Both the position numbers and the translations under genes were made by a program. A DNA stretch of 56,918 bases from Candidatus Pelethomonas sp. (GTDB lineage Bacteria > Bacillota > Clostridia > Oscillospirales > Oscillospiraceae): assembly GCA_045615065.1 (NCBI GenBank), contig JAZLEB010000043.1, positions 1-56,918 on the forward strand, given 5' to 3'. The notes beneath the pieces are model-generated. The model saw only the letters and a program-made list of their open reading frames with translations, was not told where the DNA came from and made no database searches. Numbering within the stretch: the stretch's first letter is position 1; each line of letters begins with the position of its first letter. Positions 28,331 to 44,725 of this stretch are shown one piece after another.

Positions 28331-30655
28331 ATGAAAAAGAAAAACAGTTTTACCCAGCGTGTTCTCTCCCTGCTGTTGGTATTCCTGATGGTGGTGACGC
28401 TGTTCCCAACCTCGGCATGTGCAGCAGAAAGCTGCACGGGTGACGGACACATGGAGTCGGTATATGAGATCGGCAATGATACAGAAATCGTGGAGATTGC
28501 GACCAGCGGCACAGTTGGCGAAAGTGAGGTCTATTGGGCATTTGATGCGGAAACCGGTCGGCTGACGATCAGCGGCAACGGTGGCTGTGATACCTTTACC
28601 AGCGTGGACGATCAGCCCTGGGCACATCTGCGAGCCGAAATTCGTGAGGTGTGGTTCGATGGTATGGATAAACTGTCAATCGAGAGTCTGGCATACTGGT
28701 TTGACGGTTGCACGGCATTGACAACCGCTGAGATTCCCTACACCACTCCCTTGATTGGCGAGAACGCATTTGCAGATTGTGACGCACTGGAAGGCTTGAT
28801 GCTCTACTACGATGGCGAGGGATTCACCATTACTCCGGGTGCATTCGCTACCGATGATTGGAGCGCTCTTGAGGTTGCGTTTATTGCATTCTCGGAAAGC
28901 ACCATGCAAACGATCTATACATTCGATTGGGCAAGCGAGAATCGCTTTACGCGATTTGTAGATGTATACGGACTTGTCCATCTTGAAACAGGATACTGCC
29001 CTTACTGTAAGGACACTTATAGCTATACGCTCGAGTATGAGTACTGGTCGGAATTCAGTCATACATTGCGTTTCTGGTGTTCCAACTGTGGACAGGATCA
29101 AAGTATGGGGTTCAGTAACGAAAACCATACTTTCAGTAACAGCGGAACCTGTACGCTGTGCCAATATTACGACGAATCAAAAGATAACACGATTTGCGAA
29201 CACGATTCTACCAGCACCACATGGTCGGGATGCGATTGGTCCGAATATTGTGACAACTGTGATGAGTTGATCGATTACGGCACAACCCACGGCACCTATA
29301 CCTACGGCGATTGGGAATACTACACGACCTCTCAGCATCGTCGTACCTATACCTGTGACGACTGTGGAGAGGGCTCCTATTCCTACGGTTACCACTCCAC
29401 GACTACAGAATACAGTAAATACAGCGCTACCCAGCATACCGAGGGATCTTACTGCTCTGGCTGCGAAAGCTACATTGGCTCCACTACCAAGGTAAGCCAC
29501 AGTTTTACCTATGGTTCCTGGGCTTCCTATGACGATTCTCAGCATCGCAGGACAAAGACCTGTTCCGACTGCGGGTACAGCACCTATGAGTACGCAGATC
29601 ATTCTCTGACCTACGGTAGCTATACTTCCTACAATACCACCCAGCATCGCAGAAAGGTGTCCTGCTCCTGCGGCTACTTTACCTACGAGTATGTAAACCA
29701 CACGATTACCACCGGCTCTTGGATCAGTGCTTCGGATACCCAGCACTCTCGTACCAAGTCTTGTTCTGTGTGCAGTTACAGCACCACGGAAACAAAATCC
29801 CATTCCATCACTAATGGAACTTGGACAAATATATCAGCGACACAACACCAGCGCACCAACAAGTGCTCTTCCTGTAATTACAGCAAGACGGAGAAAGCCT
29901 CCCATACGATCTCCAGTACTGCATGGACGAGCATTTCTTCTACACAACACCAGAGAACAAATTCCTGTGCTACCTGTTCGTACAGCGCCACCGAGAAAAC
30001 AAGCCACAGCATCAGCAGCACAGCGTGGAAGAGCATATCAGATACGCAGCACTCCAGAACCAATAGCTGCTCCTGTGGTTACTCTGCCGTCGAGGTGGTT
30101 TCCCATACCATCACACATTCCGCTTGGGTCAGCATTTCAGCGAAGCAACATCAGCGTACCAATAGTTGTTCTTGCGGATATTCCGTGAAGGAGACTGTTG
30201 CCCATGCAGACGGTAACGCAGATGATTGCTGCGATAGCTGTAATTATCTGATGACCAGGTTCTCCGTTACCGTTCCTGCCAATCTCAGTCTGATGATGGC
30301 ATCTAACGGTGAGATTAGCTCTGCTACCACGGCAGCGATCATCAACAACTCCACTGATGCTGTAGAGGTGACAGCTATTACCATCACTGCCGCAGGCGAT
30401 TGGACGCTGGTTCCGTTCAACCACAATATGGCGGCAGCAAAGGTAGACTCCAAGCTCATCGGCTTCTCTATCAACGGTGCTGTGACAGCGAGAACCGGCA
30501 GGAGCGAGCAGTTGTCTCTTCCCGGTGACTGGACGATTGCCAAGGGCGCATCCCTGCCTCTGACCTATGATGCGGTGGCGTCCGCAACCTCTGTGGCGAT
30601 CAATAACGAACAGGTGCTGACACTGGTGTTCGTGATTGATTGGGTGGACAGATGA
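28331..30655 (+). CDS. 774-aa secreted surface protein: BspA-type leucine-rich-repeat region, Cys-rich region, nine H..W..QH.RT..C.(1-2)C.Y repeats and the shared C-terminal surface domain
   Basis: Signal peptide is MKKKNSFTQRVLSLLLVFLMVVTLFPTSACA. LRR_5-like segment is EVWFDGMDKLSIESLAYWFDGCTALTTAEIPYTTPLIGENAFADCDALEGLML. The repeats are listed in the findings. The C-terminus is RFSVTVPANL...AIINNSTDAVEVTAITITAAGDWTLVPF...AKVDSKLIGFSI...LTYDAVA...LTLVFVIDWVDR. There is no LPXTG motif. Confidence 0.75.
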   Translation: MKKKNSFTQRVLSLLLVFLMVVTLFPTSACAAESCTGDGHMESVYEIGNDTEIVEIATSGTVGESEVYWAFDAETGRLTISGNGGCDTFTSVDDQPWAHLRAEIREVWFDGMDKLSIESLAYWFDGCTALTTAEIPYTTPLIGENAFADCDALEGLMLYYDGEGFTITPGAFATDDWSALEVAFIAFSESTMQTIYTFDWASENRFTRFVDVYGLVHLETGYCPYCKDTYSYTLEYEYWSEFSHTLRFWCSNCGQDQSMGFSNENHTFSNSGTCTLCQYYDESKDNTICEHDSTSTTWSGCDWSEYCDNCDELIDYGTTHGTYTYGDWEYYTTSQHRRTYTCDDCGEGSYSYGYHSTTTEYSKYSATQHTEGSYCSGCESYIGSTTKVSHSFTYGSWASYDDSQHRRTKTCSDCGYSTYEYADHSLTYGSYTSYNTTQHRRKVSCSCGYFTYEYVNHTITTGSWISASDTQHSRTKSCSVCSYSTTETKSHSITNGTWTNISATQHQRTNKCSSCNYSKTEKASHTISSTAWTSISSTQHQRTNSCATCSYSATEKTSHSISSTAWKSISDTQHSRTNSCSCGYSAVEVVSHTITHSAWVSISAKQHQRTNSCSCGYSVKETVAHADGNADDCCDSCNYLMTRFSVTVPANLSLMMASNGEISSATTAAIINNSTDAVEVTAITITAAGDWTLVPFNHNMAAAKVDSKLIGFSINGAVTARTGRSEQLSLPGDWTIAKGASLPLTYDAVASATSVAINNEQVLTLVFVIDWVDR
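29288..30247 (+). repeat. Nine-plus tandem ~33-34-codon repeats (His2-Cys2 pattern) within the surface protein gene
   Basis: Example units: HSFTYGSWASYDDSQHRRTKTCSDCGYSTYEYAD, HTITTGSWISASDTQHSRTKSCSVCSYSTTETKS, HSITNGTWTNISATQHQRTNKCSSCNYSKTEKAS, HTISSTAWTSISSTQHQRTNSCATCSYSATEKTS, HTITHSAWVSISAKQHQRTNSCSCGYSVKETVA. Confidence 0.8.
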
Positions 30656-30689
30656 TCTGTCCGCCTAACCCGGAAGGGGGTGACACATC

Positions 30690-31154
30690 ATGCAGGAGGA
30701 AGTGGAGAGCAAAGTTGCTGTCCTGATCGTTAATACGGGTAAGCTCACCGAGCAGGAGCTTCACAAAGCGCTGGCGGCAATGCTACGGGAACTGAAGGGT
30801 AAAATGGACGATGCGAAACACCCCCACGGAAAAATGACAGTGAAACAACTTGCCGCACAGAATCACGGAATGCAGAGTATCGAGGTGTCGGATAAAAACA
30901 TCGGCTCGTTCAATCGGATCGCGCGAAAATACGGCATCGACTTTGCTCCATTTAAGGTCAAGGGCGAGAATAAGTATCTGATCTTTTTCAAAGCACCGGA
31001 TAAGGATGCGATGACAGCAGCGTTCAAGGAGTACACCGCCAAGCAGATCGGAAAATCGCAGCGCCCCTCCGTACTGCAAAAGCTTCAGCATTTCAAATCC
31101 CTCATCAAAACAGCAGTGGTGGATCGAACGAAAAAGAAGGAGTGGGAGCGATGA
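30690..31154 (+). CDS. PcfB-family (DUF3801) conjugation accessory protein
   Basis: Its position immediately upstream of, and overlapping, the coupling-protein gene, plus ...MTVKQLAAQNHGMQSIEVSDKNIGSFNRIARKYGIDFAPFKVKGENKYLIFFKAPDKDAMTAAF, is typical of PcfB. Confidence 0.65.
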   Translation: MQEEVESKVAVLIVNTGKLTEQELHKALAAMLRELKGKMDDAKHPHGKMTVKQLAAQNHGMQSIEVSDKNIGSFNRIARKYGIDFAPFKVKGENKYLIFFKAPDKDAMTAAFKEYTAKQIGKSQRPSVLQKLQHFKSLIKTAVVDRTKKKEWER

Positions 31155-32200
31155 AGCGTACAAACTTCAAAAAGCTCCTGCTCCTCAATTCACCCTATCT
31201 GCTTTTTGTTTACATGGGAATGAAACTGAGTGAAGCTGTGCGGCTCACACCGGGGATGGACTTTTCTGAAAAGTTTCTGTATCTCCCGGACGGATTTTCT
31301 GCAGCGTTTTCTTCTGCACTTCCAAGTGTTCATCCGGCAGACCTCTGTGTAGGCATTGCCTGTGCGTTGCTTGTTCGCTTGGTAGTTTATGTCAAGGGAA
31401 AAAACGCCAAGAAGTTTCGCAAAAACAAAGAGTACGGTAGTGCCAGATGGGGCAGTCCGGAGGACATCGCACCATACATGGATGCTGATTTTTCCAATAA
31501 CATCATCCTCACGCAGACGGAACAGCTGACCATGAACAACCGTCCGAAAGATCCGCTTACATCACGCAATAAGAATGTGCTTGTGATCGGAGGAAGTGGT
31601 TCCGGTAAAACCCATTTCTGGCTCAAGCCTAATCTGCTCCAATGTACATCTGAGCAGTACCCCGTCAGCTTTGTGGTCATAGATCCCAAAGGCTCCGTTG
31701 TGATAGAGTGCGGAAACGCACTCCTAAAACACGGATATCGGCTGAAAATCCTCAACACCATCAATTTCAAAAAGTCCATGCACTACAATCCCTTTGCCTA
31801 CATCCATAGCGAAAAGGATATTTTGAAGCTGGTTACCTGCTTAATTGCCAATACCAAGGGCGAAGGAAAAGCCGGTGATGATTTCTGGGTGAAGGCAGAA
31901 ACGCTGCTTTACACGGCACTTATCGGCTATATTCACTATGAAGCACCGGTGGAGGAACAGAATTTTTCCACGCTGATCGAGTTCATCAATGCTATGGAGG
32001 TTCGAGAAGACGATGAGGAGTTCAAGAACAGCGTAGATCTCATGTTTGAGGAACTGGAAAAAGAAAAGCCCAATCACTTTGCAGTACGTCAATATGCCAA
32101 ATATAAATTAGCCGCGGGAGTTGTATGCTTTAAGAGACTTCTTAATCACACGATTAGGAAGTCCCTTAAAACATATAACGAAGGAAGGAGATACACTTGA
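31151..32200 (+). pseudogene. VirD4/TraG-type type IV coupling protein, N-terminal fragment (interrupted after codon 322; 27 foreign codons, then stop)
   Basis: Two N-terminal transmembrane segments. Walker A is NVLVIGGSGSGKTHFWLKPNL. Homology ends at ...AVRQYAKYKLAAG (GGA at 32117-32119), after which the frame reads element sequence VVCFKRLLNHTIRKSLKTYNEGRRYT*. Confidence 0.85.
32132..32148. repeat. Left terminal inverted repeat of the nested element
   Basis: AAGAGACTTCTTAATCA. It matches the reverse complement of 42185-42200 (AAGGACTTTTTAATCA) at 15 positions with one gap. Confidence 0.6.
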
Positions 32201-34086
32201 GCAAGAAACAAATCACTGCTCTTTACGAGCGTCTAAGCCGTGATGACGACTTGGAGGGCGAATCCAACAGTATATCCAATCAAAAGAAGCAGTTGGAAGA
32301 TTATGCCCGTCAGCATGGTTTTCCCAACCCTGTCCACTTCACGGACGATGGTATCAGCGGCACTTGCTTTGATCGCCCCGGCTTTCTGGCAATGATGAGA
32401 GAAGTTGAAGCCGGGAATGTCGAGTATTTGTGCATCAAGGACATGAGCCGTCTGGGGCGTGATTATCTGAAGGTCGGTCAGATCATGGAGATCCTCCGAC
32501 AGAAAGGTGTCCGTCTTATTGCCATCAACGATGGTGTGGACAGTGCCAGAGGGGACGATGACTTCACTCCCTTCCGCAACATCATGAACGAGTATTACGC
32601 CAGAGACACAAGCCGTAAAATTCGTTCCACTTTCCAATCCAAAGGCAAGACGGGCAAGCACCTCACAGGCTTAGTCATTTATGGCTACCTCTGGAACGAG
32701 AAGCGAGACCAGTGGCTCATAGATGAAGAAGCCGCAGCAGTGGTAAAACGCATCTTCTCCATGACGATTGATGGATTGGGACCATATCAGATTGCCCAGA
32801 AGCTGACAGACGAACAGGTTCTCATTCCGGCTGCTCACCTTGCCCAGCATGGTGAGGGAGTGAACAAGAGCAAATCCTTCAAGAATATCTACGGATGGGG
32901 TTCATCTACCATCGTCAACATCCTGCAAAAGCGTGAGTATCTGGGTCACACCATCAACTTCAAGACACGAAAACACTTCAAGGACAAGAAAAGCCATTAT
33001 GTCCCAGAGGATGAATGGACGATTTTTGAGAATACCCACGAACCAATCATTGACCAAGAGACATTTGATCTGGTTCAAAAAGTCCGCAGCAATGTGAGGC
33101 GGTATCCAAACGGTTGGGGCGAGACAGCACCTCTGACGGGATTGCTTTTCTGCGCCGATTGTGGTGGCAAGATGTATGTCCATCGGACAAACAACGGCAA
33201 GCGGATTTCTCAATACACTTGTTCCCAGTACAGCAAAATCCCTGTAGGTGAACTTTGTTCCACCCAACATCGTATCAACGAGGATGTTGTTCTGGAGTTG
33301 ATCTCCGACCTCTTGAAGGCGATTGCCGACTACGCCAAACACGATAGAGCGGACTTTATTCGCGTCGTACAGCAAGCGCAGGACAATCAGCAGTCCTACG
33401 AAGTCAAACGGCAAAAGACCCGTCTTGCAGCCGCGAAAAACAGGAAGGATGAGCTGGAAACGCTCCTCTGCAAGATTTACGAGGACAATATCTTGGGCAA
33501 GCTGTCAGATGACAGATATACCACTCTGGATGCTAAATATGCCAAGGAACAATCTGACCTTGCAGAGGAGATTGCTGCCATTGAAAACAGTCTCGCGTCA
33601 TACGAGAAAAACAAGAAGTCCGCAGAACGCTTTATCTCTCTGATCGAGAAATATGAGAACTTCGATCATCTGTCCATTGCAATGCTCAATGAACTTGTTG
33701 ACAAGATTCTTGTTCACGAGCGTGACCGCAAAGGCAGCAAACAGACCACACAGGAGATCGAGGTGTTCTTCAACTTTGTTGGGCGGTTTGTCCCTCCCTC
33801 TTTTGGCGAGGAGCTTACGCCGGAGGAAATGGAAGCGATCCGCAAGCGTGAAGCACGAAAGGACAGGCTGCATCAAAACTACTTGAAGCGAAAAGCAAGC
33901 GGCAAGCAAAAAGAGTATGAAGAACGGATACGAGCCAAGAAAAAAGCGGAGCTTGACGTAAAGAAAGATGCTCTCCGGGCAGAGGATATTGCCCATGGCG
34001 TATTTGTTCCGGTGAGCAATCTTCCTGTGCTTGAGCCGAGAAAGAATACGGATCATCCAATTCATACATCTACCCAGTACGCATAA
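32197..34086 (+). CDS. Large serine recombinase (TnpX/TndX class)
   Basis: TTG start after a GAAGGAAGGAGA RBS. The resolvase catalytic domain is ALYERLSRDDDLEGESNSISNQK...LCIKDMSRLGRDY...IAINDGVDS. It continues with a recombinase domain, a zinc ribbon (CADCGGKMYV...YTCSQY) and a long coiled-coil C-terminus. Confidence 0.9.
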   Translation: MSKKQITALYERLSRDDDLEGESNSISNQKKQLEDYARQHGFPNPVHFTDDGISGTCFDRPGFLAMMREVEAGNVEYLCIKDMSRLGRDYLKVGQIMEILRQKGVRLIAINDGVDSARGDDDFTPFRNIMNEYYARDTSRKIRSTFQSKGKTGKHLTGLVIYGYLWNEKRDQWLIDEEAAAVVKRIFSMTIDGLGPYQIAQKLTDEQVLIPAAHLAQHGEGVNKSKSFKNIYGWGSSTIVNILQKREYLGHTINFKTRKHFKDKKSHYVPEDEWTIFENTHEPIIDQETFDLVQKVRSNVRRYPNGWGETAPLTGLLFCADCGGKMYVHRTNNGKRISQYTCSQYSKIPVGELCSTQHRINEDVVLELISDLLKAIADYAKHDRADFIRVVQQAQDNQQSYEVKRQKTRLAAAKNRKDELETLLCKIYEDNILGKLSDDRYTTLDAKYAKEQSDLAEEIAAIENSLASYEKNKKSAERFISLIEKYENFDHLSIAMLNELVDKILVHERDRKGSKQTTQEIEVFFNFVGRFVPPSFGEELTPEEMEAIRKREARKDRLHQNYLKRKASGKQKEYEERIRAKKKAELDVKKDALRAEDIAHGVFVPVSNLPVLEPRKNTDHPIHTSTQYA

Positions 34087-34103
34087 ATAGGAGGTTGCCA
34101 GTT

Positions 34104-34391
34104 ATGATCTTAGATGCACTTTATGAAGGACAGGTCTATCCTGCGGAAACCGTGATTCCACAATGCAAGGAGTTCCGTGAAGCAGAAAGGCAGATATCTA
34201 ACCTCTTGAATCTCTTGGAACAGCGTTTAGAGAAAGACGACTGTGATAGGCTTGAAAACCTCAAGGAGCTGTTCTTCGATAATCATCGTCTTGACTGTAA
34301 GGAGAATTTCAAACACGGCTTTGCGATGGGGGTTCTGCTGATGAAGGAAGTGTATGAACTGTCCTCTGGATATACCAGAGAAACACCATAA
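34104..34391 (+). CDS. Small hypothetical protein (MGE-associated)
   Basis: AGGAGG RBS 9 nt upstream of ATG 34104. The 95-aa helical protein begins MILDALYEGQVYPAETVIPQCKEFREAERQ... Confidence 0.5.
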   Translation: MILDALYEGQVYPAETVIPQCKEFREAERQISNLLNLLEQRLEKDDCDRLENLKELFFDNHRLDCKENFKHGFAMGVLLMKEVYELSSGYTRETP

Positions 34392-34485
34392 GATGTGCAG
34401 CAAAAAGCGGCAGAGATTTGTCAGGATCTCTGCTGCTTTTGCTTTTTATGCTACAAAAAATGAACTACCTAACTGGAGGAGCAAC

Positions 34486-34776
34486 ATGGAAAAACTGACG
34501 AAGTACGAGAAGGAAACGATCATCCTTTTCAATGAAGGCGAGGACACGGCGAGTATCTACACCTACAATGCCGGACTACGAAAGCGGCTTGCAGCATTCA
34601 GTAAGCAGTATCCAGATCACTGTCGTCTGGAACAGTCACACGAGCAAGGCGGGGTGTCTTATGTTCTTGATAAGTCCCGACTGTCCGTCCGTCTGCAACC
34701 GCCGTACAGCGAGGAGCGCAGGCAAAAAGCCAGCGAGAACGCCAAGAAAAACGGTTTCAGCAGTCAATCGGAATAA
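34486..34776 (+). CDS. Small hypothetical protein (MGE-associated)
   Basis: Start trimmed to MEKLTKYEKETIILFNEGEDTASIYTYNAGLRKRL (CTGGAGGAG RBS). 96 aa. Confidence 0.5.
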   Translation: MEKLTKYEKETIILFNEGEDTASIYTYNAGLRKRLAAFSKQYPDHCRLEQSHEQGGVSYVLDKSRLSVRLQPPYSEERRQKASENAKKNGFSSQSE

Positions 34777-35109
34777 TGTGGCGTTTGGAGCTGGCATGCG
34801 GTCAAAATGTCAGAACTGCATCCGATGTTTGGACCGCAGTATTGCATAGAGTATCAACTATGTCAGTTATGAAAAACACAGTTTCTGCAACCTATATTTC
34901 AAATTCAGTCATTTCCATTAGGTTGAAGAGTTTGTACTTTTATGGTAAAATATGATCCGAAATATGAATTTGCAGAGTTCGACAAACTTGAATTTGTCTA
35001 ACAGAGCAGGGACAAAAATTCCTGCTCTTTATTAAACTATTTTGTTATATTTTCCCGTAGAAGTTGTGTATATAGGTGAAAAGGTAATTTTGAAAGTGAG
35101 GTGAAGCAA

Positions 35110-35670
35110 ATGGATGATGCAAAAATCGTGCAGATGTATTTTGACAGAGATGAGCAGGCTATTCCAGCAACCGCAGACAAGTATGGTAACTACTGTACTT
35201 CTATTGCAAACAATATCTTAGGCAATCACGAAGATGCAGAAGAATGTGTCAATGATACATATCTAAACACCTGGAATTCCATCCCACCCCATAGGCCTAA
35301 AATGCTATCTACATTCCTGGGCAAGATTGTTCGCAATCTGGCATTTAACAGATACAAACGCAACACCGCAGATAAACGGGGAGGTGGTGAAATAACGGCG
35401 GTACTTGACGAATTGGCAAACTGCGTATCTGGAAATGATGATGTTGAGCAAGCCTATGAATACAAAGAACTGACTGCAGGCATCAATGACTTTTTAGCTA
35501 CTCTGCCAGCAGAGAAGCGGAATATCTTTGTATGCCGATACTGGTACACAGATAGCATTGCCGACATTGCCGCTCGGTTTGATATGACCTATTCTGCCGT
35601 GTCCATGATGCTGAACCGACTAAGAACCAAATTACACAACTATCTAATAGAACGGGGGTATGAACTATGA
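35110..35670 (+). CDS. Sigma-70-family (ECF-like) RNA polymerase sigma factor
   Basis: Region 2 is AIPATADKYGNYCTSIANNILGNHEDAEECVNDTYLNTWNSIPP. Region 4 is LPAEKRNIFVCRYWYTDSIADIAARFDMTYSAVSMMLNRLRTKL. Confidence 0.85.
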   Translation: MDDAKIVQMYFDRDEQAIPATADKYGNYCTSIANNILGNHEDAEECVNDTYLNTWNSIPPHRPKMLSTFLGKIVRNLAFNRYKRNTADKRGGGEITAVLDELANCVSGNDDVEQAYEYKELTAGINDFLATLPAEKRNIFVCRYWYTDSIADIAARFDMTYSAVSMMLNRLRTKLHNYLIERGYEL

Positions 35671-36338
35671 AAAAAGAAAATCTTTATGAAGCCATTGGCG
35701 AAATTAACGAAGACTATATCAATGAAGCTCATAAGACCGTAAAAAAGAAATCCCGCCCTGTTTGGGTAAAATGGGTGTCTATGGCAGCCTGTCTATCCCT
35801 CATAGTAATGCTCGGGATTTTCGGCAACCTGTTTCGTTTGCTCGACACACCCGACATCTCCGATAACAGCATCTTATCGTATTTTGTAATCACTGCACAA
35901 GCAGCGAATGGGGAACCAACGGAATTGAACTTTACCAGTAGTTGTATTAATTCGGGAAAATCAAACTGCAATCTTTTTGGACATGATAGGCCACTGTTTC
36001 ATTTTGATGTTAAGCCATCAGAACTCGAAAACAATGAAGCTGTATACCAACGATTTGATATATCTATCTCCTACGACGGAACTACTGTTACTGTTGCGGA
36101 TGAACACATCTCAGTAGCTTATCTCGCTTCTGCTCACTCTTCCCAAACGTATGGGTACTCAATCTTTGGTTGGTTTACAGAACCAACAGATGTTATTGTA
36201 ACAATTACCGATAAAGAAAGCCGTGAAATCGTGGAAATGTTAACGGTAAACGTAAAATATATGGCAGATACGCAAGAGTATGAACTTGAATTGACTAACT
36301 TAACCACAAAGTTCTCTGAGCTATCTACGGCTGATTAA
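35667..36338 (+). CDS. Putative anti-sigma factor (single-pass membrane protein)
   Basis: Its start overlaps the sigma gene's stop (ATGA). It has a short cytoplasmic N-terminus (MKKENLYEAIGEINEDYINEAHK), one transmembrane segment (WVSMAACLSLIVMLGIFG) and a ~150-aa external domain. Confidence 0.55.
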   Translation: MKKENLYEAIGEINEDYINEAHKTVKKKSRPVWVKWVSMAACLSLIVMLGIFGNLFRLLDTPDISDNSILSYFVITAQAANGEPTELNFTSSCINSGKSNCNLFGHDRPLFHFDVKPSELENNEAVYQRFDISISYDGTTVTVADEHISVAYLASAHSSQTYGYSIFGWFTEPTDVIVTITDKESREIVEMLTVNVKYMADTQEYELELTNLTTKFSELSTAD

Positions 36339-36343
36339 GCTGA

Positions 36344-36375
36344 CCAATTCCAATTTGACAAAGGAGTGTGAGATT
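36344..36375 (+). repeat. Junction motif copy A (CCAATTCCAATTTGACAAAGGAGTGTGAGATT)
   Basis: It lies immediately between the anti-sigma stop and ATG 36376. Confidence 0.8.
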
Positions 36376-36624
36376 ATGAAGCAATTACACAAGTTTCTCA
36401 AGATATTCATTTTTTTGCAATTAGGCTCTTGTTGTGGTCGTGTGCTTCAAAGGTATCTTGATTTCGTAAATCATCCCGAAATATATGCCTATTACTCTGC
36501 TCCTTGGTATACAGGAATTACCATCACAGTTATTCTTACGGCAATAACTGTTTTGATTACAACGATTGCCTATTTTGTGGTTGGACACTTAATCAAGAAG
36601 AGAGAGCAAAATAAGACAGAATAA
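36376..36624 (+). CDS. 82-aa two-transmembrane-segment membrane protein
   Basis: MKQLHKFLKIFIFLQLGSCC...TGITITVILTAITVLITTIAYFVVGHLI. The TTG-extended form in the ORF track (MTKECEIM...) merely reads through the conserved motif. Confidence 0.55.
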   Translation: MKQLHKFLKIFIFLQLGSCCGRVLQRYLDFVNHPEIYAYYSAPWYTGITITVILTAITVLITTIAYFVVGHLIKKREQNKTE

Positions 36625-36656
36625 CCAATTCCAATTTGACAAAGGAGTGTGATTGT
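36625..36656 (+). repeat. Junction motif copy B (CCAATTCCAATTTGACAAAGGAGTGTGATTGT)
   Basis: It starts 1 nt after the preceding TAA and ends at ATG 36657. Confidence 0.8.
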
Positions 36657-36956
36657 ATGAAAAGATTGATGGCTGTTGCTCTTGTAATGGCTCTGCTCCT
36701 TAGTTTGGTTGCTTGTAGTGGTAAGACTATCGGCAAAATAAGTGGTGCTGAAAATGAATATATCACCATTGATGATGTGAAATATGGCTTAGACGCAGAT
36801 AACGATTTCAGTCAAGCAGACAAAGGAACTTATTTAGGGAAAGTATCAAACGCTAAAATCACGATGAAAGTCTATTCTGTCAAAGGTGATGCCGAAGCAG
36901 AATATATCTATGCTGTTTGGGATTGGGAGGGTGCTTTCTACAAGAAAGAGCAATAA
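36657..36956 (+). CDS. 99-aa lipoprotein
   Basis: MKRLMAVALVMALLLSLVAC lipobox. Confidence 0.6.
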   Translation: MKRLMAVALVMALLLSLVACSGKTIGKISGAENEYITIDDVKYGLDADNDFSQADKGTYLGKVSNAKITMKVYSVKGDAEAEYIYAVWDWEGAFYKKEQ

Positions 36957-36957
36957 A

Positions 36958-36989
36958 CAAATTCCAATTTGACAAAGGAGTGTGATTGT
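36958..36989 (+). repeat. Junction motif copy C (CAAATTCCAATTTGACAAAGGAGTGTGATTGT)
   Basis: It lies directly after the preceding TAA and ends at ATG 36990. It is identical to copy B over 30 nt. Confidence 0.8.
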
Positions 36990-37334
36990 ATGAAAAAGTT
37001 GATAGCATTAGTTTTGGCATTAGTTTGTGTGCTTGGCTTGGTTGCTTGTGGTGCAAAGGAGCAGACAACACCTAACACACCCAATGCAACGATACCTTCG
37101 ATTATGTATGAGGGCAATCTATACAAGACAACAGGCAAACAAATCCCAGCAGAGGTTGATGAAACTGCTATTGTAGGAAACATAAGTTCAGTTGTTCCGT
37201 TATCTCAGTTTCCTACTAATGACGGCGAAGCAAACTTTGGTCAAGTGGGTGACCCGTACGCACTCACAGCAGATGGCTTAGTGGTATTGCTCAATAACGA
37301 ATGGACTTTGTTTGAGCTGTTGGAAGTAGAATAA
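36990..37334 (+). CDS. 114-aa lipoprotein
   Basis: MKKLIALVLALVCVLGLVAC lipobox. The mature part is unrelated to the 99-aa lipoprotein by eye. Confidence 0.6.
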   Translation: MKKLIALVLALVCVLGLVACGAKEQTTPNTPNATIPSIMYEGNLYKTTGKQIPAEVDETAIVGNISSVVPLSQFPTNDGEANFGQVGDPYALTADGLVVLLNNEWTLFELLEVE

Positions 37335-37343
37335 TCTATTAAG

Positions 37344-37361
37344 CCAATTCCAATTGGTCGG
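37344..37361 (+). repeat. Junction motif copy D, closing variant (CCAATTCCAATTGGTCGG)
   Basis: The first 11 nt match copies A-C. It then diverges to TGGTCGG instead of TTGAC-RBS. Confidence 0.65.
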
Positions 37362-37479
37362 GCAGATACGGCGTTCGACCTGCTTTTAGAATACTTCATA
37401 ATGACTAAAACAAAGGCGATCAACTCTATGTGGTTGGTCGCTTTTGCTTTGCCCATTATTGTGAAAGGAGCTGACCCGG

Positions 37480-37797
37480 ATGACAAACGAAAAACTTGAA
37501 AAGCTGAAGCACGACAAGTATGTTGCGAAAAAGAAGTTGACCGCAGCCAAACACAGAGAGAAACAGATAGAAAGTGAGCTGAAGCGGCTGACCAGAAGCG
37601 AGCGTACGCACCGCCTTTGTACTCGTGCCGGAATGTTGGAAGCGTTCTTGCGAGAACCAACCCTGCTGACTGACGATGATGTAATGGAGCTGCTGACCTT
37701 CATATTCCAGAGTAAAGCGGTTCACGAGAAGCTGAATATGCTGATCGAGAACCGAAAAGAAACGGCGACAACGGGAGCTGATGAGCCCTTAGCGTAA
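37480..37797 (+). CDS. DUF3847-like coiled-coil protein (usually the partner of MobA/MobL relaxases)
   Basis: MTNEKLEKLKHDKYVAKKKLTAAKHREKQIESELKRLTRSERTHRLCTRAGMLEAFL... Confidence 0.65.
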   Translation: MTNEKLEKLKHDKYVAKKKLTAAKHREKQIESELKRLTRSERTHRLCTRAGMLEAFLREPTLLTDDDVMELLTFIFQSKAVHEKLNMLIENRKETATTGADEPLA

Positions 37798-37947
37798 GAT
37801 AAGGGCGCAACTATACACCGCCCAAGGCGGTGCGTTGCGTTCTGCCGAAAGCCCCTTGCAGGGAGCAGATGATTTCCGCTGATCCGCTTCAATCATCCAG
37901 GGGAATGAATTCCCCTGCGCTGGCGTTGCCAGCTACCCCTTTGTAGA

Positions 37948-37990
37948 CTCGCTACCTGAAAACGATTATAAATTGTTTTCAGGTAGCGAG
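37948..37990. repeat. Perfect 16-bp inverted repeat with an 11-nt loop (terminator or oriT-associated hairpin)
   Basis: ctcgctacctgaaaac at 37948-37963 and gttttcaggtagcgag at 37975-37990. The trailing T-run is weak (ttctc). Confidence 0.5.
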
Positions 37991-38158
37991 TTCTCAGAAT
38001 AGCTATTTCGTTTTCAACTCGGCTATGTTATACTAAAGTAAACTATAACAGTTAGATAACTTGAATTTGGCTTTGTAAAATTCTAATGTTATCGTTACCC
38101 TTCCTACAAGCAGCCAACTATTTTCCTTTAAGTTTACATTTCTGAAGGAGATTGCACC

Positions 38159-39136
38159 ATGAAGATTTCTCATATCGAAAACGAAGAACTCAGTATGCGC
38201 ATCTATCGGGCTTGTATGGACGCAGGCTTTGATGATTGTGGGATTATTTCCATCGAGGATATGGATACATATATTGCCAATACCCGAAAGCGGATCGAAG
38301 CAGTTCCCGCCAGTGCCGGTTTTTACAAGAACGCGATTTCCGGTACTGAAGAAATCAGAACCCGCTTTCCCTGGTCGAAATCCATTGTAATCTGCCTGTC
38401 CTGGATCGGCAAGTACAAATATCCCGAGGATTTGCAGGGACTGTATGCCAAAGGTTTTTTCATTTCTCGTGACAGCGATAAGAACGGTCCAGAGCATTTG
38501 CGAAAGCACAATCTGGGACGGTGGTTCGATGAAAATCAAATCGAATGGACAGGAACCATCAAGGAGAACGGCTTTGGCATTTGGGGTCTCCGTCATGCTG
38601 CGGAAATAGCGGGCATTGGCATGATCCGCCGGAATAACTTTCTGTACAATGAAGACGGTTCGTGGATAGAGCTGGATAGCTTTTTGATTGGAGAGCATTG
38701 CAGACTTTATCAGGACAAAAAGTTTCCTCCCTGCCCTGCAGGCTGTACCATTTGTCAGAAAGCTTGTCCATCAAGCGCCCTCGGTGCGCCCTACACGCTG
38801 AATCCTTTTCATTGCTTATCCTTTATCAATACATTTGGAAGAGGTATTATACCGGAAGGATTGCGGGAGGAACAGCTTGGAATGTGGATTGTGGGCTGTG
38901 ACGCGTGTCAGGATGCCTGTCCCTTCAATCGCAAGCACGATTGGTCTCAGGGAGAGGACTTCCCCGGTCTTAACGATCTTGTTGAACGAATGCAAGCGCA
39001 AAATGTACTGACTGCCAGCGATGAAGAATTGGTGCAAATCTGCCGCCGAACAGCGGATCATCTTTCTGAAAAAGATGTGGATGTACTGAGAGCAAGTGCC
39101 GGACGAGCTCTGCGCATGAAGGCAAAAGCTGATTAA
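38159..39136 (+). CDS. Epoxyqueuosine-reductase (QueG)-like / reductive-dehalogenase-related 4Fe-4S protein
   Basis: Two ferredoxin-type cluster motifs are CPAGCTICQKACP and CDACQDACP. The N-terminal part has the DUF1730-like layout. The exact function is not assignable from sequence alone. Confidence 0.6.
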   Translation: MKISHIENEELSMRIYRACMDAGFDDCGIISIEDMDTYIANTRKRIEAVPASAGFYKNAISGTEEIRTRFPWSKSIVICLSWIGKYKYPEDLQGLYAKGFFISRDSDKNGPEHLRKHNLGRWFDENQIEWTGTIKENGFGIWGLRHAAEIAGIGMIRRNNFLYNEDGSWIELDSFLIGEHCRLYQDKKFPPCPAGCTICQKACPSSALGAPYTLNPFHCLSFINTFGRGIIPEGLREEQLGMWIVGCDACQDACPFNRKHDWSQGEDFPGLNDLVERMQAQNVLTASDEELVQICRRTADHLSEKDVDVLRASAGRALRMKAKAD

Positions 39137-39166
39137 GGCGAATAACAACTCAACCATAACAGCGTG

Positions 39167-39193
39167 ACAATTCCATTTGACGGAGGTGCTATC
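39167..39193 (+). repeat. Junction motif copy E (ACAATTCCATTTGACGGAGGTGCTATC)
   Basis: A degenerate copy of the A-C motif, immediately upstream of ATG 39194. Confidence 0.6.
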
Positions 39194-39577
39194 ATGCGTA
39201 TAGAACATATAGCAATGTATGTAAACGACTTAGAAAAGGCACGGACTTTCTTTATGAAATACTTTGGTGCCACTTCGAATGAAGGATATCACAATGCAAA
39301 AACAGACTTTCGTTCTTATTTTTTGAGTTTCGACCAGGGAGCACGGTTGGAAATTATGAACAAGCCCCAGATGTCTGACACAGAAAAAGGACCGACTCGC
39401 ACAGGCTACATCCATATCGCTTTCAGCCTTGGAAACAAAGCCGCCGTTGATGAACTCACGGAAAAGCTGAGAGTTGATGGCTACGAAGTAATCAGCGGCC
39501 CAAGAACAACAGGTGATGGCTACTATGAAAGCTGCATTGTGGGAATTGAGGGAAACCAGATTGAGATAACCGTATAA
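39194..39577 (+). CDS. VOC/glyoxalase-bleomycin-resistance-family protein
   Basis: MRIEHIAMYVNDLEKARTFF...GYIHIAFSL...GPRTTGDGYYESCIVGIEGNQIEIT is a typical paired beta-alpha-beta-beta-beta module. Confidence 0.8.
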   Translation: MRIEHIAMYVNDLEKARTFFMKYFGATSNEGYHNAKTDFRSYFLSFDQGARLEIMNKPQMSDTEKGPTRTGYIHIAFSLGNKAAVDELTEKLRVDGYEVISGPRTTGDGYYESCIVGIEGNQIEITV

Positions 39578-39594
39578 CAAATGCCAATGGTCGG
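39578..39594 (+). repeat. Junction motif copy F, closing variant (CAAATGCCAATGGTCGG)
   Basis: It lies directly after the TAA of the VOC gene. It shares the CCAAT(T)GGTCGG ending with copy D. Confidence 0.55.
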
Positions 39595-39648
39595 CCTGAT
39601 TGCCCATGCGACAACTCAATAACCACAGTATTCTAAGCGGTACAGCAA

Positions 39649-39681
39649 GCAGGAAATCTGAAAAGGTTTCCTGCTTTTTTT
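39649..39681 (+). terminator. Rho-independent terminator
   Basis: gcaggaaa / tttcctgc stem with a 10-nt loop, followed by TTTTTTT at 39675-39681. Confidence 0.7.
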
Positions 39682-39714
39682 GCGCCCAAATTAGATAAGA
39701 AGGAGATGATAATT

Positions 39715-41304
39715 ATGCCCAATCCGCACTTTGATATTTCAATCACACAGCGAAGCAAGGGCAAGTCTGCTGTTGCCGGAGCAGCATATCAGAGTGGCGA
39801 TAAACTGTTTTCCGAGTACGATCAAAAATACAAAAACTACACGAGGAAGCAAGGCATCGTTTACACGGAAATCATGCTTCCTGCGAATGCACCACCCGAA
39901 TATGCCGATAGAGAAACGTTGTGGAACTCAGCCGAGGAAATTGAGAAGCAGTGGAACTCTCAGCTTGCCAGACGCTTTGTTCTTACATTCCCACGAGAGA
40001 TTCCGAGTGAGCACTATCCGCAGATGGTCAGAGACTACTGCATGGAGCATTTTGTGTCCAAGGGAATGTGTTGCGACTTCGCAATTCACGATCCCAGTCC
40101 GCCGGGACACAACCCTCATTGTCATGTGATGCTCACAATGAGGGCAATGGACGAGCATGGAAAATGGCTGCCCAAGAGCCGAAAGGTTTATGACCTTGAC
40201 GAGAACGGTGAGCGCATCAGACTTCCCTCCGGCAACTGGAAATGCCACAAGGAAAACACCGTGGACTGGAACGAGCAGTACCACGGAGAGGAGTGGAGAC
40301 ATGGCTGGGAAGTTGTTCAGAATCGCTATCTTGAAATGATCGGCAGTGCCGAGAGAGTGGATCTTCGTTCCTATGAACGGCAAGGACTGGACACAATCCC
40401 GACCGTTCATATGGGGCCTGCGGTCACGCAAATGGAGCGGCGAGGTGTAAAGACCAACATTGGAAATCTGAACCGCGACATCCGAGCTGCCAACAGAATG
40501 ATGAGAGCAATTCGGAACACGATCAGCAGTTTGCGAGATTGGATAGCTGCAATCCTCGAAGCAAGAAAAGAACTTCTTGCCGAACTGGACGCTGCAAATC
40601 AATCTCCCTCGCTCTCTGCTCTGCTCAATGATTATATGGATCTGCGCAAGGCAGAACGTAGCGAGTGGTCTGAATACGGACAGCGGAAAGGTTCTCTTGC
40701 TGACTTGCAGGCTGTGTCAAAGGCCGTCAGTTACCTCAGCGACCACGACCTTACTACGCTGGAAAACCTCGATGAAAGTCTGGAAGCTCTGAATACAAAA
40801 GTCAGTACTGTCCGTGCGGAAATGAGGAAAGCCGAGAAGAGACTGAAAACGATTGACAACATCCAACGAGCGGTTGCTACTTGCCAAACGCACAAGGTCA
40901 TCCATGACAAGTATGTAAAGATTGGCTGGAAAACAGCGCAGAACGCTTTTGCAGAGAAGCATGAATCAGAGCTGGAGGCATACAACAAGGCGTTCCGCTA
41001 TTTGAAAAAGCAAGGTGTCGATCTGTCTGTTGATTTGAAAAAGCTTCGAGCAGAAAGCGATGATCTGACACGAAACATCAAACTAAAAGAAACGGAGTTG
41101 AGAACAATTCAAAACGAACTGAAACCGATGGAAGAAATTCGTCACTGGGTCGGCAAGGTTCTCAGTGCCAACATTGACACGGTTGAAAAGAAAGCTGAGC
41201 CCAGACATTCGATCAGAGAAATGCTGGCGGATCTTCAGCCGCAATCTCGCAAATCCCACACCACGCATCAGCAACAAAAAGATTCTATCAATAAGGAGCA
41301 TTAA
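39715..41304 (+). CDS. MobA/MobL-family (MOBQ-type) relaxase
   Basis: N-terminal SAVAGAAYQSG holds the catalytic Tyr region. The histidine triad is AIHDPSPPGHNPHCHVML. It has a long coiled-coil C-terminus. Start trimmed to the ATG 9 nt after AAGGAG. Confidence 0.85.
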   Translation: MPNPHFDISITQRSKGKSAVAGAAYQSGDKLFSEYDQKYKNYTRKQGIVYTEIMLPANAPPEYADRETLWNSAEEIEKQWNSQLARRFVLTFPREIPSEHYPQMVRDYCMEHFVSKGMCCDFAIHDPSPPGHNPHCHVMLTMRAMDEHGKWLPKSRKVYDLDENGERIRLPSGNWKCHKENTVDWNEQYHGEEWRHGWEVVQNRYLEMIGSAERVDLRSYERQGLDTIPTVHMGPAVTQMERRGVKTNIGNLNRDIRAANRMMRAIRNTISSLRDWIAAILEARKELLAELDAANQSPSLSALLNDYMDLRKAERSEWSEYGQRKGSLADLQAVSKAVSYLSDHDLTTLENLDESLEALNTKVSTVRAEMRKAEKRLKTIDNIQRAVATCQTHKVIHDKYVKIGWKTAQNAFAEKHESELEAYNKAFRYLKKQGVDLSVDLKKLRAESDDLTRNIKLKETELRTIQNELKPMEEIRHWVGKVLSANIDTVEKKAEPRHSIREMLADLQPQSRKSHTTHQQQKDSINKEH

Positions 41305-41366
41305 GCACCTGCCGTTTTCTTCTGGAAAATGTCAGGTGCTTTTTTGTTTCCCGAAAGGAGCCGCAA

Positions 41367-42005
41367 ATGAGTGTATTTGATTCCCTCAAACAAAATGTGA
41401 CTGCCAGACAGGCAGCAGAACTTTATGGCATCCCCGTCAACCGCTACGGCATGGCTGTCTGTCCTTTTCACGATGACAAGAATCCAAGCATGAAAGTGGA
41501 TAGTCGCTTCCATTGCTTTGGGTGTCAGGCAGATGGCGATGCCGTTGATTTCGTCTCCCGGCTGTTCGGTTTGTCGAGCAAGGATGCTGCGATGAAGTTA
41601 GCTGCCGATGTCGGCATCAGCTATGAGAACCACCGCAAGCCGATAGCCAAGCCGCACATTCGGGAACCCACTCCCGAACAGAAGTATCAGCAGGAAGAGA
41701 TCCATTGTCATAGGGTGTTGTCCGATTATTACCACCTACTTCAAGGATGGAAAAAGGAATACGCGCCCAAGCAGGCAGATGAAGAATGGCATCCACTATT
41801 CATTGAAGCTGTGCAGCAAGAAAGCTACATTGAACATCTTCTCGATGTCCTGTTGTGCGGCTCGTTGGAGAAGCGGAAAGAACTCGTAACCGGACAGCGG
41901 AAAGAGGTGATGAAACTGGAACAGCGTGTCCGGGAATTGTCTGTCAAATCATCTGCACACCGTAGAGTCGGTAAAAGAAAAACCAGAAGCACACCAGAAC
42001 GGTAA
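41367..42005 (+). CDS. CHC2 zinc-finger (DnaG/TraC primase N-terminal-like) protein
   Basis: CPFHDDKNPSMKVDSRFHCFGCQADGDAVDF. Confidence 0.75.
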   Translation: MSVFDSLKQNVTARQAAELYGIPVNRYGMAVCPFHDDKNPSMKVDSRFHCFGCQADGDAVDFVSRLFGLSSKDAAMKLAADVGISYENHRKPIAKPHIREPTPEQKYQQEEIHCHRVLSDYYHLLQGWKKEYAPKQADEEWHPLFIEAVQQESYIEHLLDVLLCGSLEKRKELVTGQRKEVMKLEQRVRELSVKSSAHRRVGKRKTRSTPER

Positions 42006-42019
42006 GGAGGAAATATTTG

Positions 42020-42172
42020 ATGAATGCTATTTCAGCTAATGCCCCGACCACCTACAAGAAGATGATCGGGCAGACCACCTATGTAGTCAGAGTTCACTTC
42101 AGCGAGAAGAGCAAGGACACACTGGCAGATAAAATCAAGCGTCTGCTGACGGAGGAGGTGGCAAAGATGTGA
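42020..42172 (+). CDS. 50-aa TnpW-like small protein
   Basis: Below the ORF-track cutoff; read by hand. It translates as MNAISANAPTTYKKMIGQTTYVVRVHFSEKSKDTLADKIKRLLTEEVAKM with a GGTAAGGAGG RBS. It resembles the transposon-encoded TnpW family as I remember it. Confidence 0.5.
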   Translation: MNAISANAPTTYKKMIGQTTYVVRVHFSEKSKDTLADKIKRLLTEEVAKM

Positions 42173-42184
42173 TTCTTTGAAAAA

Positions 42185-42200
42185 TGATTAAAAAGTCCTT
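42185..42200. repeat. Right terminal inverted repeat of the nested element
   Basis: TGATTAAAAAGTCCTT, the partner of 32132-32148. Confidence 0.6.
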
Positions 42201-42214
42201 GACATTTCGTTTCA

Positions 42215-43036
42215 GGCAAGACAGCTAAGTCTATCCTCATTTCCTGCGGTGCGCGTCTTGCGCCCTTTGATATTCAGGAACTGCGGGAGCTGACGGCGTA
42301 TGACGAACTGGAGCTGGACACTCTTGGCGACCAAAAGACAGCCCTCTTTCTCATCATGAGCGATACGGACTCAACATTCAATTTTCTGCTCTCCATGTGC
42401 TATACCCAACTGTTCAATCTGCTGTGCGAAAAGGCAGACGATGTTTACGGTGGTCGATTGCCTGTCCATGTGCGCTGTCTGATCGACGAGGCGGCGAATA
42501 TCGGGCAGATCCCGAACCTTGAAAAGCTGGTGGCGACGATCCGCAGCCGTGAGATCTCAGCTTGTCTGATCCTACAGGCACAAAGTCAACTCAAAGCGTT
42601 GTATAAGGATAATGCTGATACGATTATCGGCAATATGGACTGCTCCATTTTCCTCGGCGGTCGTGAGCCGGGTACGCTGAAGGAACTTTCTGCGGCACTC
42701 GGCAAGGAAACTGTGGATACCTACAACACCGGTGAAAGCCGTGGTCGTGAGGTTTCCCACTCGCTCAACTACCAGAAGCTCGGTCGAGAGCTGATGTCAC
42801 AGGACGAATTGGCGGTGCTGGATGGAAGAAAGTGTATCCTCCAGCTTCGCGGCGTCAGGCCGTTCCTGTCGGACAAATATGATCTGACCAAACATCCCCT
42901 ATACCGTTACACAGCCAACTACGACAAGAGAAACGCATTGGACATTGAACGTTTCCTGTCCCATAACCTCAAGCTCCGACCGGAGGATGCTTTTGAGGTG
43001 TACTGCGCAGACCTCTCCGGTGTAGCCGTTGGCTGA
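42215..43036 (+). pseudogene. VirD4/TraG-type coupling protein, C-terminal fragment
   Basis: It is in phase with the N-terminal fragment. It reads GKTAKSILISCGARLAPFDIQELRELTAYDELELDTLGDQKTALFLIMSDTDSTFNF...VHVRCLIDEAANIGQIP (Walker B/DEA)...ISACLILQAQSQL. Confidence 0.85.
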
Positions 43037-43115
43037 TCCCAGCGGCAAATGACAATCTCAGTGATAATCGTGAAATGCGTATCTTCCAAATTTTTGTATT
43101 TTTCGGAGGTACACT

Positions 43116-43340
43116 ATGGATTTTTTCAACTCTGCTATCAATGTTCTTCAGACGCTGGTCATTGCGCTCGGTGCCGGTCTGGGTGTCTGGGGTCTTATCA
43201 ACCTTATGGAAGGTTACGGCAACGATAACCCCGGCGCAAAGAGCCAGGGCATGAAGCAGCTCATGGCTGGTGCCGGTGTTGCTGTGATCGGTGTCGTTCT
43301 CGTCCCTCTGCTGTCCGGTCTGTTCGCGGTCGGCGGCTAA
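43116..43340 (+). CDS. Maff2-family small membrane protein (possible VirB2 analogue)
   Basis: 74 aa with two transmembrane segments: MDFFNSAINVLQTLVIALGAGLGVWGLINLMEGYGNDNPGAKSQGMKQLMAGAGVAVIGVVLVPLL. Confidence 0.65.
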   Translation: MDFFNSAINVLQTLVIALGAGLGVWGLINLMEGYGNDNPGAKSQGMKQLMAGAGVAVIGVVLVPLLSGLFAVGG

Positions 43341-44293: not shown

Positions 44294-44725
44294 GTGGCGT
44301 ATGTCAATGTTCCCAAGGACTTGACCAAAGTCAAGACCAAGGTGCTTTTCAATCTCACAAAACGACAGCTCATTTGCTTTAGCGGCGGACTCCTCATGGG
44401 AGTACCGCTTTTCTTTTTGCTCAAAGGCGTAACCGGAGCCAGCGTGGCAGCGATGGTGATGATCCTTGTTATGCTGCCTGCGTTTCTGCTTGCCATGTAT
44501 GAGAAAAACGGTCAACCGCTGGAGGTCATTCTTCGCAATCTTCTTCGCGTCTGTTTTCTGAGGCCGAAACAGCGCCCTTATAAGACAAATAACTATTATG
44601 TCGTGCTTGAACGGCAGGCACGGCTTGAACAGGAGGTGTATCAAATTGTCCACAGAAAAAAGACTGGATCGCGCGCAGCGGCAGCAGATCAATGCCGCCA
44701 TTGCCAAAGCCAGAAGGATGAATAA
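44294..44725 (+). CDS. PrgI-family (VirB3-like) membrane protein
   Basis: GTG start after GGAGGTG. (M)AYVNVPKDLTKVKTKVLFNLTKRQLICFSGGLLMGVPLFFLL. The 3' ~80 nt overlap the VirB4 start in another frame, so the true end is uncertain. Confidence 0.6.
   Translation: MAYVNVPKDLTKVKTKVLFNLTKRQLICFSGGLLMGVPLFFLLKGVTGASVAAMVMILVMLPAFLLAMYEKNGQPLEVILRNLLRVCFLRPKQRPYKTNNYYVVLERQARLEQEVYQIVHRKKTGSRAAAADQCRHCQSQKDE

Follow-up and report, generated by a model that had tools for sequence, protein, structure and literature searches.

A mobilisable element inserted in the coupling-protein gene of an integrative and conjugative element, and what its excision would restore

What becomes of an integrative and conjugative element (ICE) when the gene for its coupling protein is occupied by a second mobile element? 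The question is raised by contig JAZLEB010000043.1 of Candidatus Pelethomonas sp., a stretch of 56,918 nucleotides referred to here in its entirety as the window, in which a VirD4-type type IV coupling protein (T4CP) gene is split by a 10.1-kb insert. The insertion of this integrative mobilisable element (IME) in the T4CP gene is confirmed as real and is neither a chance arrangement nor an assembly chimera. The reading of the insert as an IME with a TnpX-like recombinase and a MOBQ module, integrated site-specifically in the T4CP gene of an ICE and able by its excision to restore that gene, is very probably correct. Elements of this family occupy the one gene on which transfer of the host ICE hinges, and they move cargo, including aminoglycoside-resistance genes in relatives. 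The window represents no new kind of system; its value is as a clean and intact case for which the empty site is also available.

The 5' part of the T4CP gene (31151-32118; features lie on the forward strand unless stated otherwise) comprises codons 1-322 plus the GG of codon 323, and the 3' part (42217-43036) ends with a stop at 43036. The left open reading frame (ORF, 31142/31151-32200) has its ATG start at 31151, matches positions 45-205 of the Pfam T4SS-DNA_transf profile, and contains the Walker A motif GGSGSGKT. The right half matches profile positions 222-442 and the TraG-D_C domain and contains the Walker B motif LIDEAANIG. As integrated, the left frame continues into the element and stops at a TGA (32198-32200). 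The left part ends GCC GCG GG at 32118 and the right part restarts with C at 42217, directly after a second GG (42215-42216). When the halves are fused in silico through a single GG, a 595-aa protein results. A search of 5.8 billion proteins with this reconstructed T4CP gave 120 listed homologues. Among these listed matches, the best (P0001) likewise measures 595 aa, with 98% identity and 100% coverage, and many others are 81-93% identical. A pattern search found the junction sequence KLAAGKTAKSI (junction peptide K-L-A-A-G-K-T-A-K-S) unbroken in 69 of the 120.

The contig that encodes the 98% homologue (L001) provides the empty site. It aligns to window positions 29634-32118 and 42215-43230, and the two alignments overlap by GG alone (L001 2484-2485). 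The insert measures 10,098 bp with one GG counted, and the crossover spans 2 bp. The attL crossover dinucleotide lies at 32117-32118, and GG stands at the left junction in 66/66 T4CP junctions compared; attR lies at 42215-42216, as both the junction and the empty-site alignment indicate. Strand exchange, as the sequence shows, occurred at this GG. The GC content is 45.4% in the insert and about 51% in the flanks. Independent genome assemblies, 65 in all and several of them complete chromosomes, show the same arrangement. The first-pass annotation had placed a serine-recombinase mobilisable element inside a VirD4-type T4CP gene, and this placement is correct to the base (32119-42216). Its joined T4CP of about 595 aa, with Walker A on the left and Walker B on the right, and its GG at both junctions (present once in L001) likewise hold, and the comparison it advised with intact T4CPs of related ICEs returned the uninterrupted 595-aa homologues and the empty-site contig. 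It had also stated that the ICE lacks a functional T4CP; as integrated, the gene is split and no second T4CP was seen in the window.

How specific is the choice of this site? One scan of species-representative genomes with the window recombinase returned 80 loci with recombinases of 72-82% identity, spanning many Clostridia genera, Faecalibacterium included, with a few contigs assigned to other taxa. The left flank is readable at 71 of the 80. Sixty-five of these were scored at the T4CP codon used in the window and one more (L057) was read by eye, which places 66/71 directly after codon 322 and answers the earlier suggestion to look for the element in other T4CP genes. The junction in T4CP-inserted loci always reads ...GC[N] GC[N] GG before the insert, although identity between these host T4CPs and that of the window is only 34-92%. 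These related elements measure 6.9-11.5 kb and have strongly conserved ends. At 21/21 loci that have both halves complete, removing the element in silico leaves a T4CP frame open for at least 585 codons. The closest relatives, with a 95% identical recombinase, sit in at least four different T4CP genes. Target specificity is thus high, with one dominant T4CP site and a GG crossover. The recombinase family is very common in gut Clostridia, with at least 8,000 proteins at E <= 1e-30. An exact-sequence look-up of the window recombinase returned no record for the version beginning with L or for that beginning with M, and the closest recombinases found are 95-96% identical.

At the left end of the element lies a large serine recombinase of 629 aa (32197-34086), whose TTG start is preceded by GGAAGGAGA and shares bases (cTTGAg) with the stop codon of the truncated T4CP frame. 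Its Pfam domain set is full (Resolvase, Recombinase, Zn_ribbon_recom, and DUF4368). Further right follow a DUF3847 (PF12958) protein (37480-37797), an accessory partner of MOBQ2 relaxases, a MobQ-family relaxase (39706-41304; MobA_MobL, PF03389, at E = 3e-88; NCBIfam MobQ is matched above its cut-off), a CHC2 zinc-finger (DnaG-type) primase-like protein (41367-42005), and a TnpW-family small protein (42017-42172). The recombinase and this mobilisation set had been recognised in the first-pass annotation, and all members are present. No VirB4 or T4CP domain was found in any ORF of 32119-42216, and the element is therefore regarded as mobilisable and not conjugative. The predicted domain content fits an IME.

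The ends of the element contain the signals expected of a recombinase substrate. The subterminal inverted repeats noted earlier are real: the left arm GACTTCTTAATCA (32136-32148), a presumed recombinase-binding half-site, pairs at 12/13 bases with the reverse complement of the right arm (42185-42197, reading GACTTTTTAATCA on the reverse strand), and each lies 19-31 nt from the crossover. Beside them stand the two halves of a promoter that would form only on the circle joint, namely a -10 element TATGCT at 32124-32129 and a -35 element TTGACA at 42199-42204. Joining the ends of the window element in silico gives TTGACA-17-TATGCT upstream of the recombinase gene, and TTGAC[AT]-17-TA[TA]GCT is present at 41/41 in-silico circle joints of family members with both ends. 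The predicted attP joint reads ...AAAAAGTCCTTGACATTTCGTTTCAGG/AGTTGTATGCTTTAAGAGAC... (circular joint string ...TTGACATTTCGTTTCAGGAGTTGTATGCT...), and the predicted repaired attB reads ...AAATTAGCCGCGGG/CAAGACAGCTAAG... (repaired T4CP joint string ...GCCGCGGGCAAGACA...). The attB encodes the conserved peptide K-L-A-A-G/K-T-A-K-S.

These features suggest a cycle in which the recombinase recombined the attP of the element with a specific attB in the T4CP gene of a Tn1549-family ICE. The reverse reaction would yield an intact 595-codon T4CP gene, open in silico as had been anticipated for a precise excision at GG, and release a 10.1-kb circle. On the circle, the joint promoter (TTGACA/TATGCT, 17 nt apart) would serve the recombinase gene. 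The circle would then be processed by its own relaxase and exported via a conjugation pore encoded elsewhere; another possibility is that an intact ICE residing in the same cell mobilises the element in trans. We infer that the host ICE depends on excision of the IME.

A further part of this reading concerns recombinase expression before excision. In the integrated state the -35 element lies 10 kb away from the recombinase gene. The gene is co-oriented with the truncated T4CP frame and lies directly behind it, no promoter-like or terminator-like site was found between the two, and the first strong terminator downstream of the T4CP fragment is at 34403-34440. The 4-nt stop/start overlap is common to all closest relatives in different host ICEs and to a Kurthia plasmid. 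Because of the lost -35 element, the co-orientation, the overlap, and the lack of an intervening terminator, ICE-driven expression of the recombinase, and hence excision, is probable. The integrated gene would then, with less certainty than the cycle itself, be driven by transcription of the ICE conjugation operon, and its dependence on that operon would couple IME excision to ICE induction. In its fullest form, this proposal makes the IME an ICE-controlled switch: the recombinase would be made only during conjugation-operon transcription, induction would lead to excision, the T4CP would be rebuilt just in time, and the joint promoter would afterwards supply recombinase for reintegration in the recipient. 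We regard such a switch as possible rather than probable. In the window, read-through combined with translational coupling to the truncated T4CP frame would supply the recombinase; most family members would instead make an in-frame T4CP(1-322)-recombinase fusion protein, and a membrane-anchored fusion of this kind could have a role of its own. If true, the switch would give a concrete molecular mechanism to a model hitherto only proposed. The split promoter, the lack of an internal promoter in the integrated state, and the T4CP stop/start overlap make the published model, in which excision restores conjugation, testable.

Several observations weigh against the excision-dependent reading or parts of it. 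First, excision is not seen in assembled contigs: a family-level attP joint pattern had no match in a metagenome contig collection, and a looser pattern had none in a viral contig collection. Little can be concluded from this absence, as rare circles seldom enter assemblies. Second, 5/71 related elements are located elsewhere, including in a glycosyltransferase gene and a tyrosine-integrase gene. Third, the topB-like topoisomerase gene of the host ICE (50483-52535) is split into two overlapping ORFs by a frameshift near 51165-51185, at an A-run (GAAAGAAAGAAAGAAAAAAG). The break is either a real frameshift of a decaying ICE or a sequencing error; given the frameshift, excision alone might not restore ICE transfer. 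Fourth, the origin of transfer (oriT) of the element is only a candidate at 37399-37462. Fifth, the frame relation between T4CP and recombinase varies across the family, and only co-orientation is universal, which is automatic from the asymmetric crossover site. Scored in the 66 T4CP-inserted copies (65 loci and the window), this relation is an in-frame fusion in 45 (e.g., L011, L013, and L015) and an overlapping stop in four. The T4CP stop lies 1-12 nt upstream of the recombinase start in two and more than 12 nt upstream in 11; four copies have it within the 5' end of the recombinase gene, in a different frame.

Two candidates were rejected. A still looser attP pattern gave 12 metagenome matches that are attributable to chance, none with the element's end sequences or genes. 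The in-frame fusion was considered as a selected feature or general requirement; most fusions belong to one near-clonal sub-lineage, and others, including the window, have a stop. As a separate observation, proteins P0129-P0240 (795-1013 aa) are predicted fusions of PF02534 with the recombinase domains, mainly from the commonest sub-lineage; gene callers predict them because no stop separates the N-terminal T4CP frame from the recombinase ORF.

The variable frame relation at attL and the frameshifted topB are also what would be expected if the T4CP gene were simply a safe place to reside. Under this alternative, the gene is targeted as conserved, widespread, and dispensable for the bacterium, insertion kills the ICE, the IME is moved in trans by another intact element, and recombinase expression is independent of the ICE. 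Several Tn1549-family ICEs and many IMEs occur per genome in these taxa (PMC12084326), transfer of Tn6103, which contains three such insertions, was not detected (PMC3158075), and family members reside at non-T4CP sites, for instance on Campylobacter coli plasmids. However, independent expression is difficult to reconcile with an integrated recombinase gene that is without its own -35 element and for which no substitute promoter-like site was found, and the stop/start overlap recurs in the window sub-lineage across host ICEs. The 21/21 testable interrupted T4CPs that are open on both sides also argue against this alternative, although recent spread could explain these as well. This alternative is plausible enough to be entertained tentatively, short of being favoured.

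A third possibility is that the insert is an immobile remnant, a single integration that has lost excision and persists as a fossil. The missing excision product in the assembled contig collections would fit, as would the related locus L013 (Faecalibacterium prausnitzii UT1), where GT instead of GG stands at the right crossover and could lock that copy in place. However, all backbone ORFs of the window element are intact, as are the two GG copies, the two inverted-repeat arms, and the two promoter halves, and the ORFs give full-length domain matches. Furthermore, recombinases 95-96% identical occur in several ICEs and therefore point to recent mobility. A remnant is thus very unlikely. That the T4CP is naturally split or the locus an assembly chimera is hardly conceivable and already refuted, since nothing was found in its favour and it is contradicted by the unbroken 595-aa homologues of up to 98% identity, by the junction peptide intact in 69/120, by the empty-site contig collinear with both flanks and sharing GG alone, and by identical junctions in 65 independent assemblies, complete chromosomes included.

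The preferred reading, an excisable IME in an ICE, gains detail from the remaining genes of the element (32119-42216; 10,098 bp). Comparison with elements that carry a 95%-identical recombinase separates a backbone (window 31340-34997, 37344-38034, and 39577 onward) from two cargo slots (34998-37343 and 38035-39576). Directly 3' of the recombinase gene, a DUF6809 protein (34095-34391) is conserved in the closest relatives; TnpV (PF14198) had no match in any ORF scanned. A terminator-like hairpin with a 17-bp stem (34403-34440) closes the recombination module and is followed by two small conserved backbone ORFs of 96 aa and 59 aa without a family match (34486-34955). Cargo slot 1 encodes an extracytoplasmic function (ECF)-type sigma factor (35101-35670), a 223-aa membrane protein (35667-36338), and three small putative lipoprotein or membrane proteins, with a 38-nt repeat before each gene; the 95%-recombinase relatives have an acetyltransferase instead of this ECF cluster. 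The repeat, ACCAATTCCAATTTGACAAAGGAGTGTGA...ATGAA, stands at 36343-36380, 36624-36661, and 36957-36994, with a partial fourth copy at 37340-37355. It lies downstream of the ECF sigma gene and may serve as a repeated unit of promoter and ribosome-binding site. Cargo slot 2 encodes a 4Fe-4S protein with weak, sub-threshold QueG similarity (38159-39136) and a glyoxalase/VOC-family protein (39164-39577), where the same relatives have PNP_UDP_1 and Adenyl_transf (nucleotidyltransferase) genes.

Between the cargo slots, just upstream of the DUF3847 gene, the candidate oriT is a stretch of conserved non-coding DNA (37399-37462) that contains GCGATCAAC/GTTGGTCGC as an inverted repeat. A second terminator-like hairpin follows cargo slot 2 (39647-39676). 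This hairpin, which TTGCGCCC follows, was also considered as the oriT, as TTGCGCCC resembles the MOBQ nick sequence; TTGCGCCC is not conserved in relatives, and the hairpin is taken as a terminator. The DUF3847 gene lies 1.9 kb upstream of the relaxase gene, with the 1.5-kb cargo slot 2 between them; most related loci have them side by side. The window relaxase is only 35-37% identical to relaxases of the family with 80%-identity recombinases, and it is 67-78% identical to those of elements in L012, L052, and L067. The elements with the similar relaxase in L052 and L067 occupy another T4CP site. Judged by these identities, the element is a mosaic, with a recombinase and ends that belong to the 80%-identity family.

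The host is recognisable from its gene order. The first ~22 kb of the window appear chromosomal (ABC transporter, hybrid histidine kinase, and MatE transporter). From ~23 kb, ParB, DUF6017, DUF3801, the split T4CP, TrbL_2, PrgI, and a VirB4-like ATPase are encoded, followed by an NlpC/P60 hydrolase, a CD1107-like protein, the topoisomerase, and an ArdC-type polyvalent protein. Tn1549-family ICEs have the order pcfB(DUF3801)-virD4-maff2-virB6(TrbL_2)-virB3(PrgI)-virB4-NlpC/P60 hydrolase-...-topB (PMC12084326, Table 3), which the conjugation module of the window matches. Maff2 was not recovered in the window by Pfam and is present at the corresponding place in L001-L003. Neither a MOBP7 relaxase (PF03432) nor an ICE integrase was seen in the ORFs scanned, from ~22.6 kb to the right end of the window; both probably lie beyond that end. 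The VirB4-like ORF (44598-47462) contains an apparent 137-aa mini-intein (46026-46436) inside its Walker A motif. Its borders are ...GTPG/CLAGDTRV...LVVHN/SGKS..., splicing would give GTPGSGKS, and the Pfam Intein_splicing match (E = 1.7e-8) is just below the curated cut-off.

Further relatives extend the range of the family. Recombinases with 80% identity occur on Campylobacter coli plasmids. The element on one of them, NZ_CP066028.1 (L096, 31198-42179), lies apparently outside a T4CP gene; besides TnpV, DUF3847-MobQ, and TnpW, it encodes aminoglycoside phosphotransferases, among them aph(3')-VIIa. A 71% identical relative is found behind a T4CP fragment on Kurthia plasmids (L097, Kurthia gibsonii pND2a). 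The family therefore seems not to be confined to one phylum, and resistance genes seem to be part of its cargo. T4CP genes also receive other insertions. Elements with distinct serine recombinases (40-44% identical) lie at about residue 100 and about residue 180 of T4CPs, and several T4CP genes contain more than one element (L011, L028, L055, L060, L047, L029, L030, L049, L052, L067, and L077), with seemingly three IMEs inside the gene of L028. The occurrence of several sites per gene fits the published "traG_site1/site2" idea. Extra insertions of ~2.5-2.7 kb occur in L024, L039, and L052 near T4CP residues 165, 238-249, and 296, and L003 has a gene for a group II intron reverse transcriptase in the vicinity.

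How does this locus compare with known systems? The window element belongs to an already described kind, because traG-targeting IMEs and MOBQ2 IMEs in Tn1549-family ICEs have been published, and the idea that excision restores the ICE is also in print. Parasite-within-parasite arrangements are on record from gut and streptococcal Firmicutes. According to a proposal in PMC5357655 and in section 3.5 of PMC5704250, induction of the ICE triggers excision of the IME and thereby restores the conjugation module.

MOBQ2 IMEs (PF03389 and PF12958) nested in Tn1549-family ICEs of Faecalibacterium, such as IME_Fpr918_traG_2 (Guédon et al. 2025, PMC12084326), share with the window element the PF03389 relaxase and PF12958 (DUF3847), the "matryoshka" nesting, and traG target names, and their host ICEs share the pcfB(DUF3801)-virD4-maff2-virB6-virB3-virB4 order found in the window. 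The window element differs in its 1.5-kb cargo slot between DUF3847 and relaxase genes, its lack of PF14198 (TnpV), and its cargo (ECF sigma cluster, 4Fe-4S protein, and glyoxalase).

Tn6104 of Clostridioides difficile R20291, found with Tn6105 and Tn6106 in the conjugative transposon Tn6103, is likewise a mobilisable transposon: a TnpX-related large serine recombinase lies at one end and a mobA/mobL-type gene close to the opposite end, the cargo includes a sigma factor, the direct repeat measures 2 bp, and the insertion is at an internal traG/VirD4 site of an ICE. Its excision from Tn6103 to a circle and a regenerated target was shown experimentally (PMC3158075). By its published description, Tn6104 differs from the window element in its size (15.6 kb), a TnpV homologue, and its cargo of two-component system, ABC transporter, toxin-antitoxin, and replisome-organiser/DnaC genes. 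Table 1 of PMC5704250 lists Tn6104 and two Streptococcus constellatus IMEs as serine-recombinase elements at internal sites of traG (VirD4 coupling protein) in Tn5252-related ICEs. The latter, IME_Sco1050_traG_site1/_site2, and other streptococcal Ser_1-family IMEs (Coluzzi et al. 2017) resemble the window element in their serine integrase and internal traG sites in Tn5252-superfamily ICEs, with more than one site per traG gene. They differ in their Streptococcus hosts and in their maintenance genes, for which the same table lists a replisome organiser; the parts of PMC5357655 and PMC5704250 that treat them make no mention of a split joint promoter.

Tn4451 and Tn4453 (Clostridium perfringens/C. 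difficile) are the source of the first-pass label "Tn4451-like", which stands for the recombination module only. Like them, the window element has a TnpX-type recombinase with DUF4368 at its left end, TnpW at its right end, a 2-bp crossover, and, in silico, a recombinase promoter made at the joint and split on integration. The Tn4451 circle forms a tnpX promoter, as the title of Lyras and Rood (2000), cited in PMC13023037, states, and TnpX requires no directionality factor (PMC5704250). Tn4451 itself has a GA crossover, many targets, the MOBV relaxase TnpZ, TnpV, and catP (PMC12084326 and PMC5704250). The window element, by contrast, has a GG crossover with one strongly preferred target, a MOBQ relaxase, and no TnpV; because of these differences, it is not a strict member of the Tn4451/3 family.

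Finally, PMC5357655 draws an analogy to gene-interrupting elements that serine recombinases excise to restore a host gene, such as prophage "regulatory switches" and elements in sporulation genes. As in these, precise excision would rebuild the interrupted gene when it is needed. Unlike in those systems, the interrupted gene here belongs to another mobile element, and the insert is mobilisable, being neither a prophage nor a domesticated remnant.

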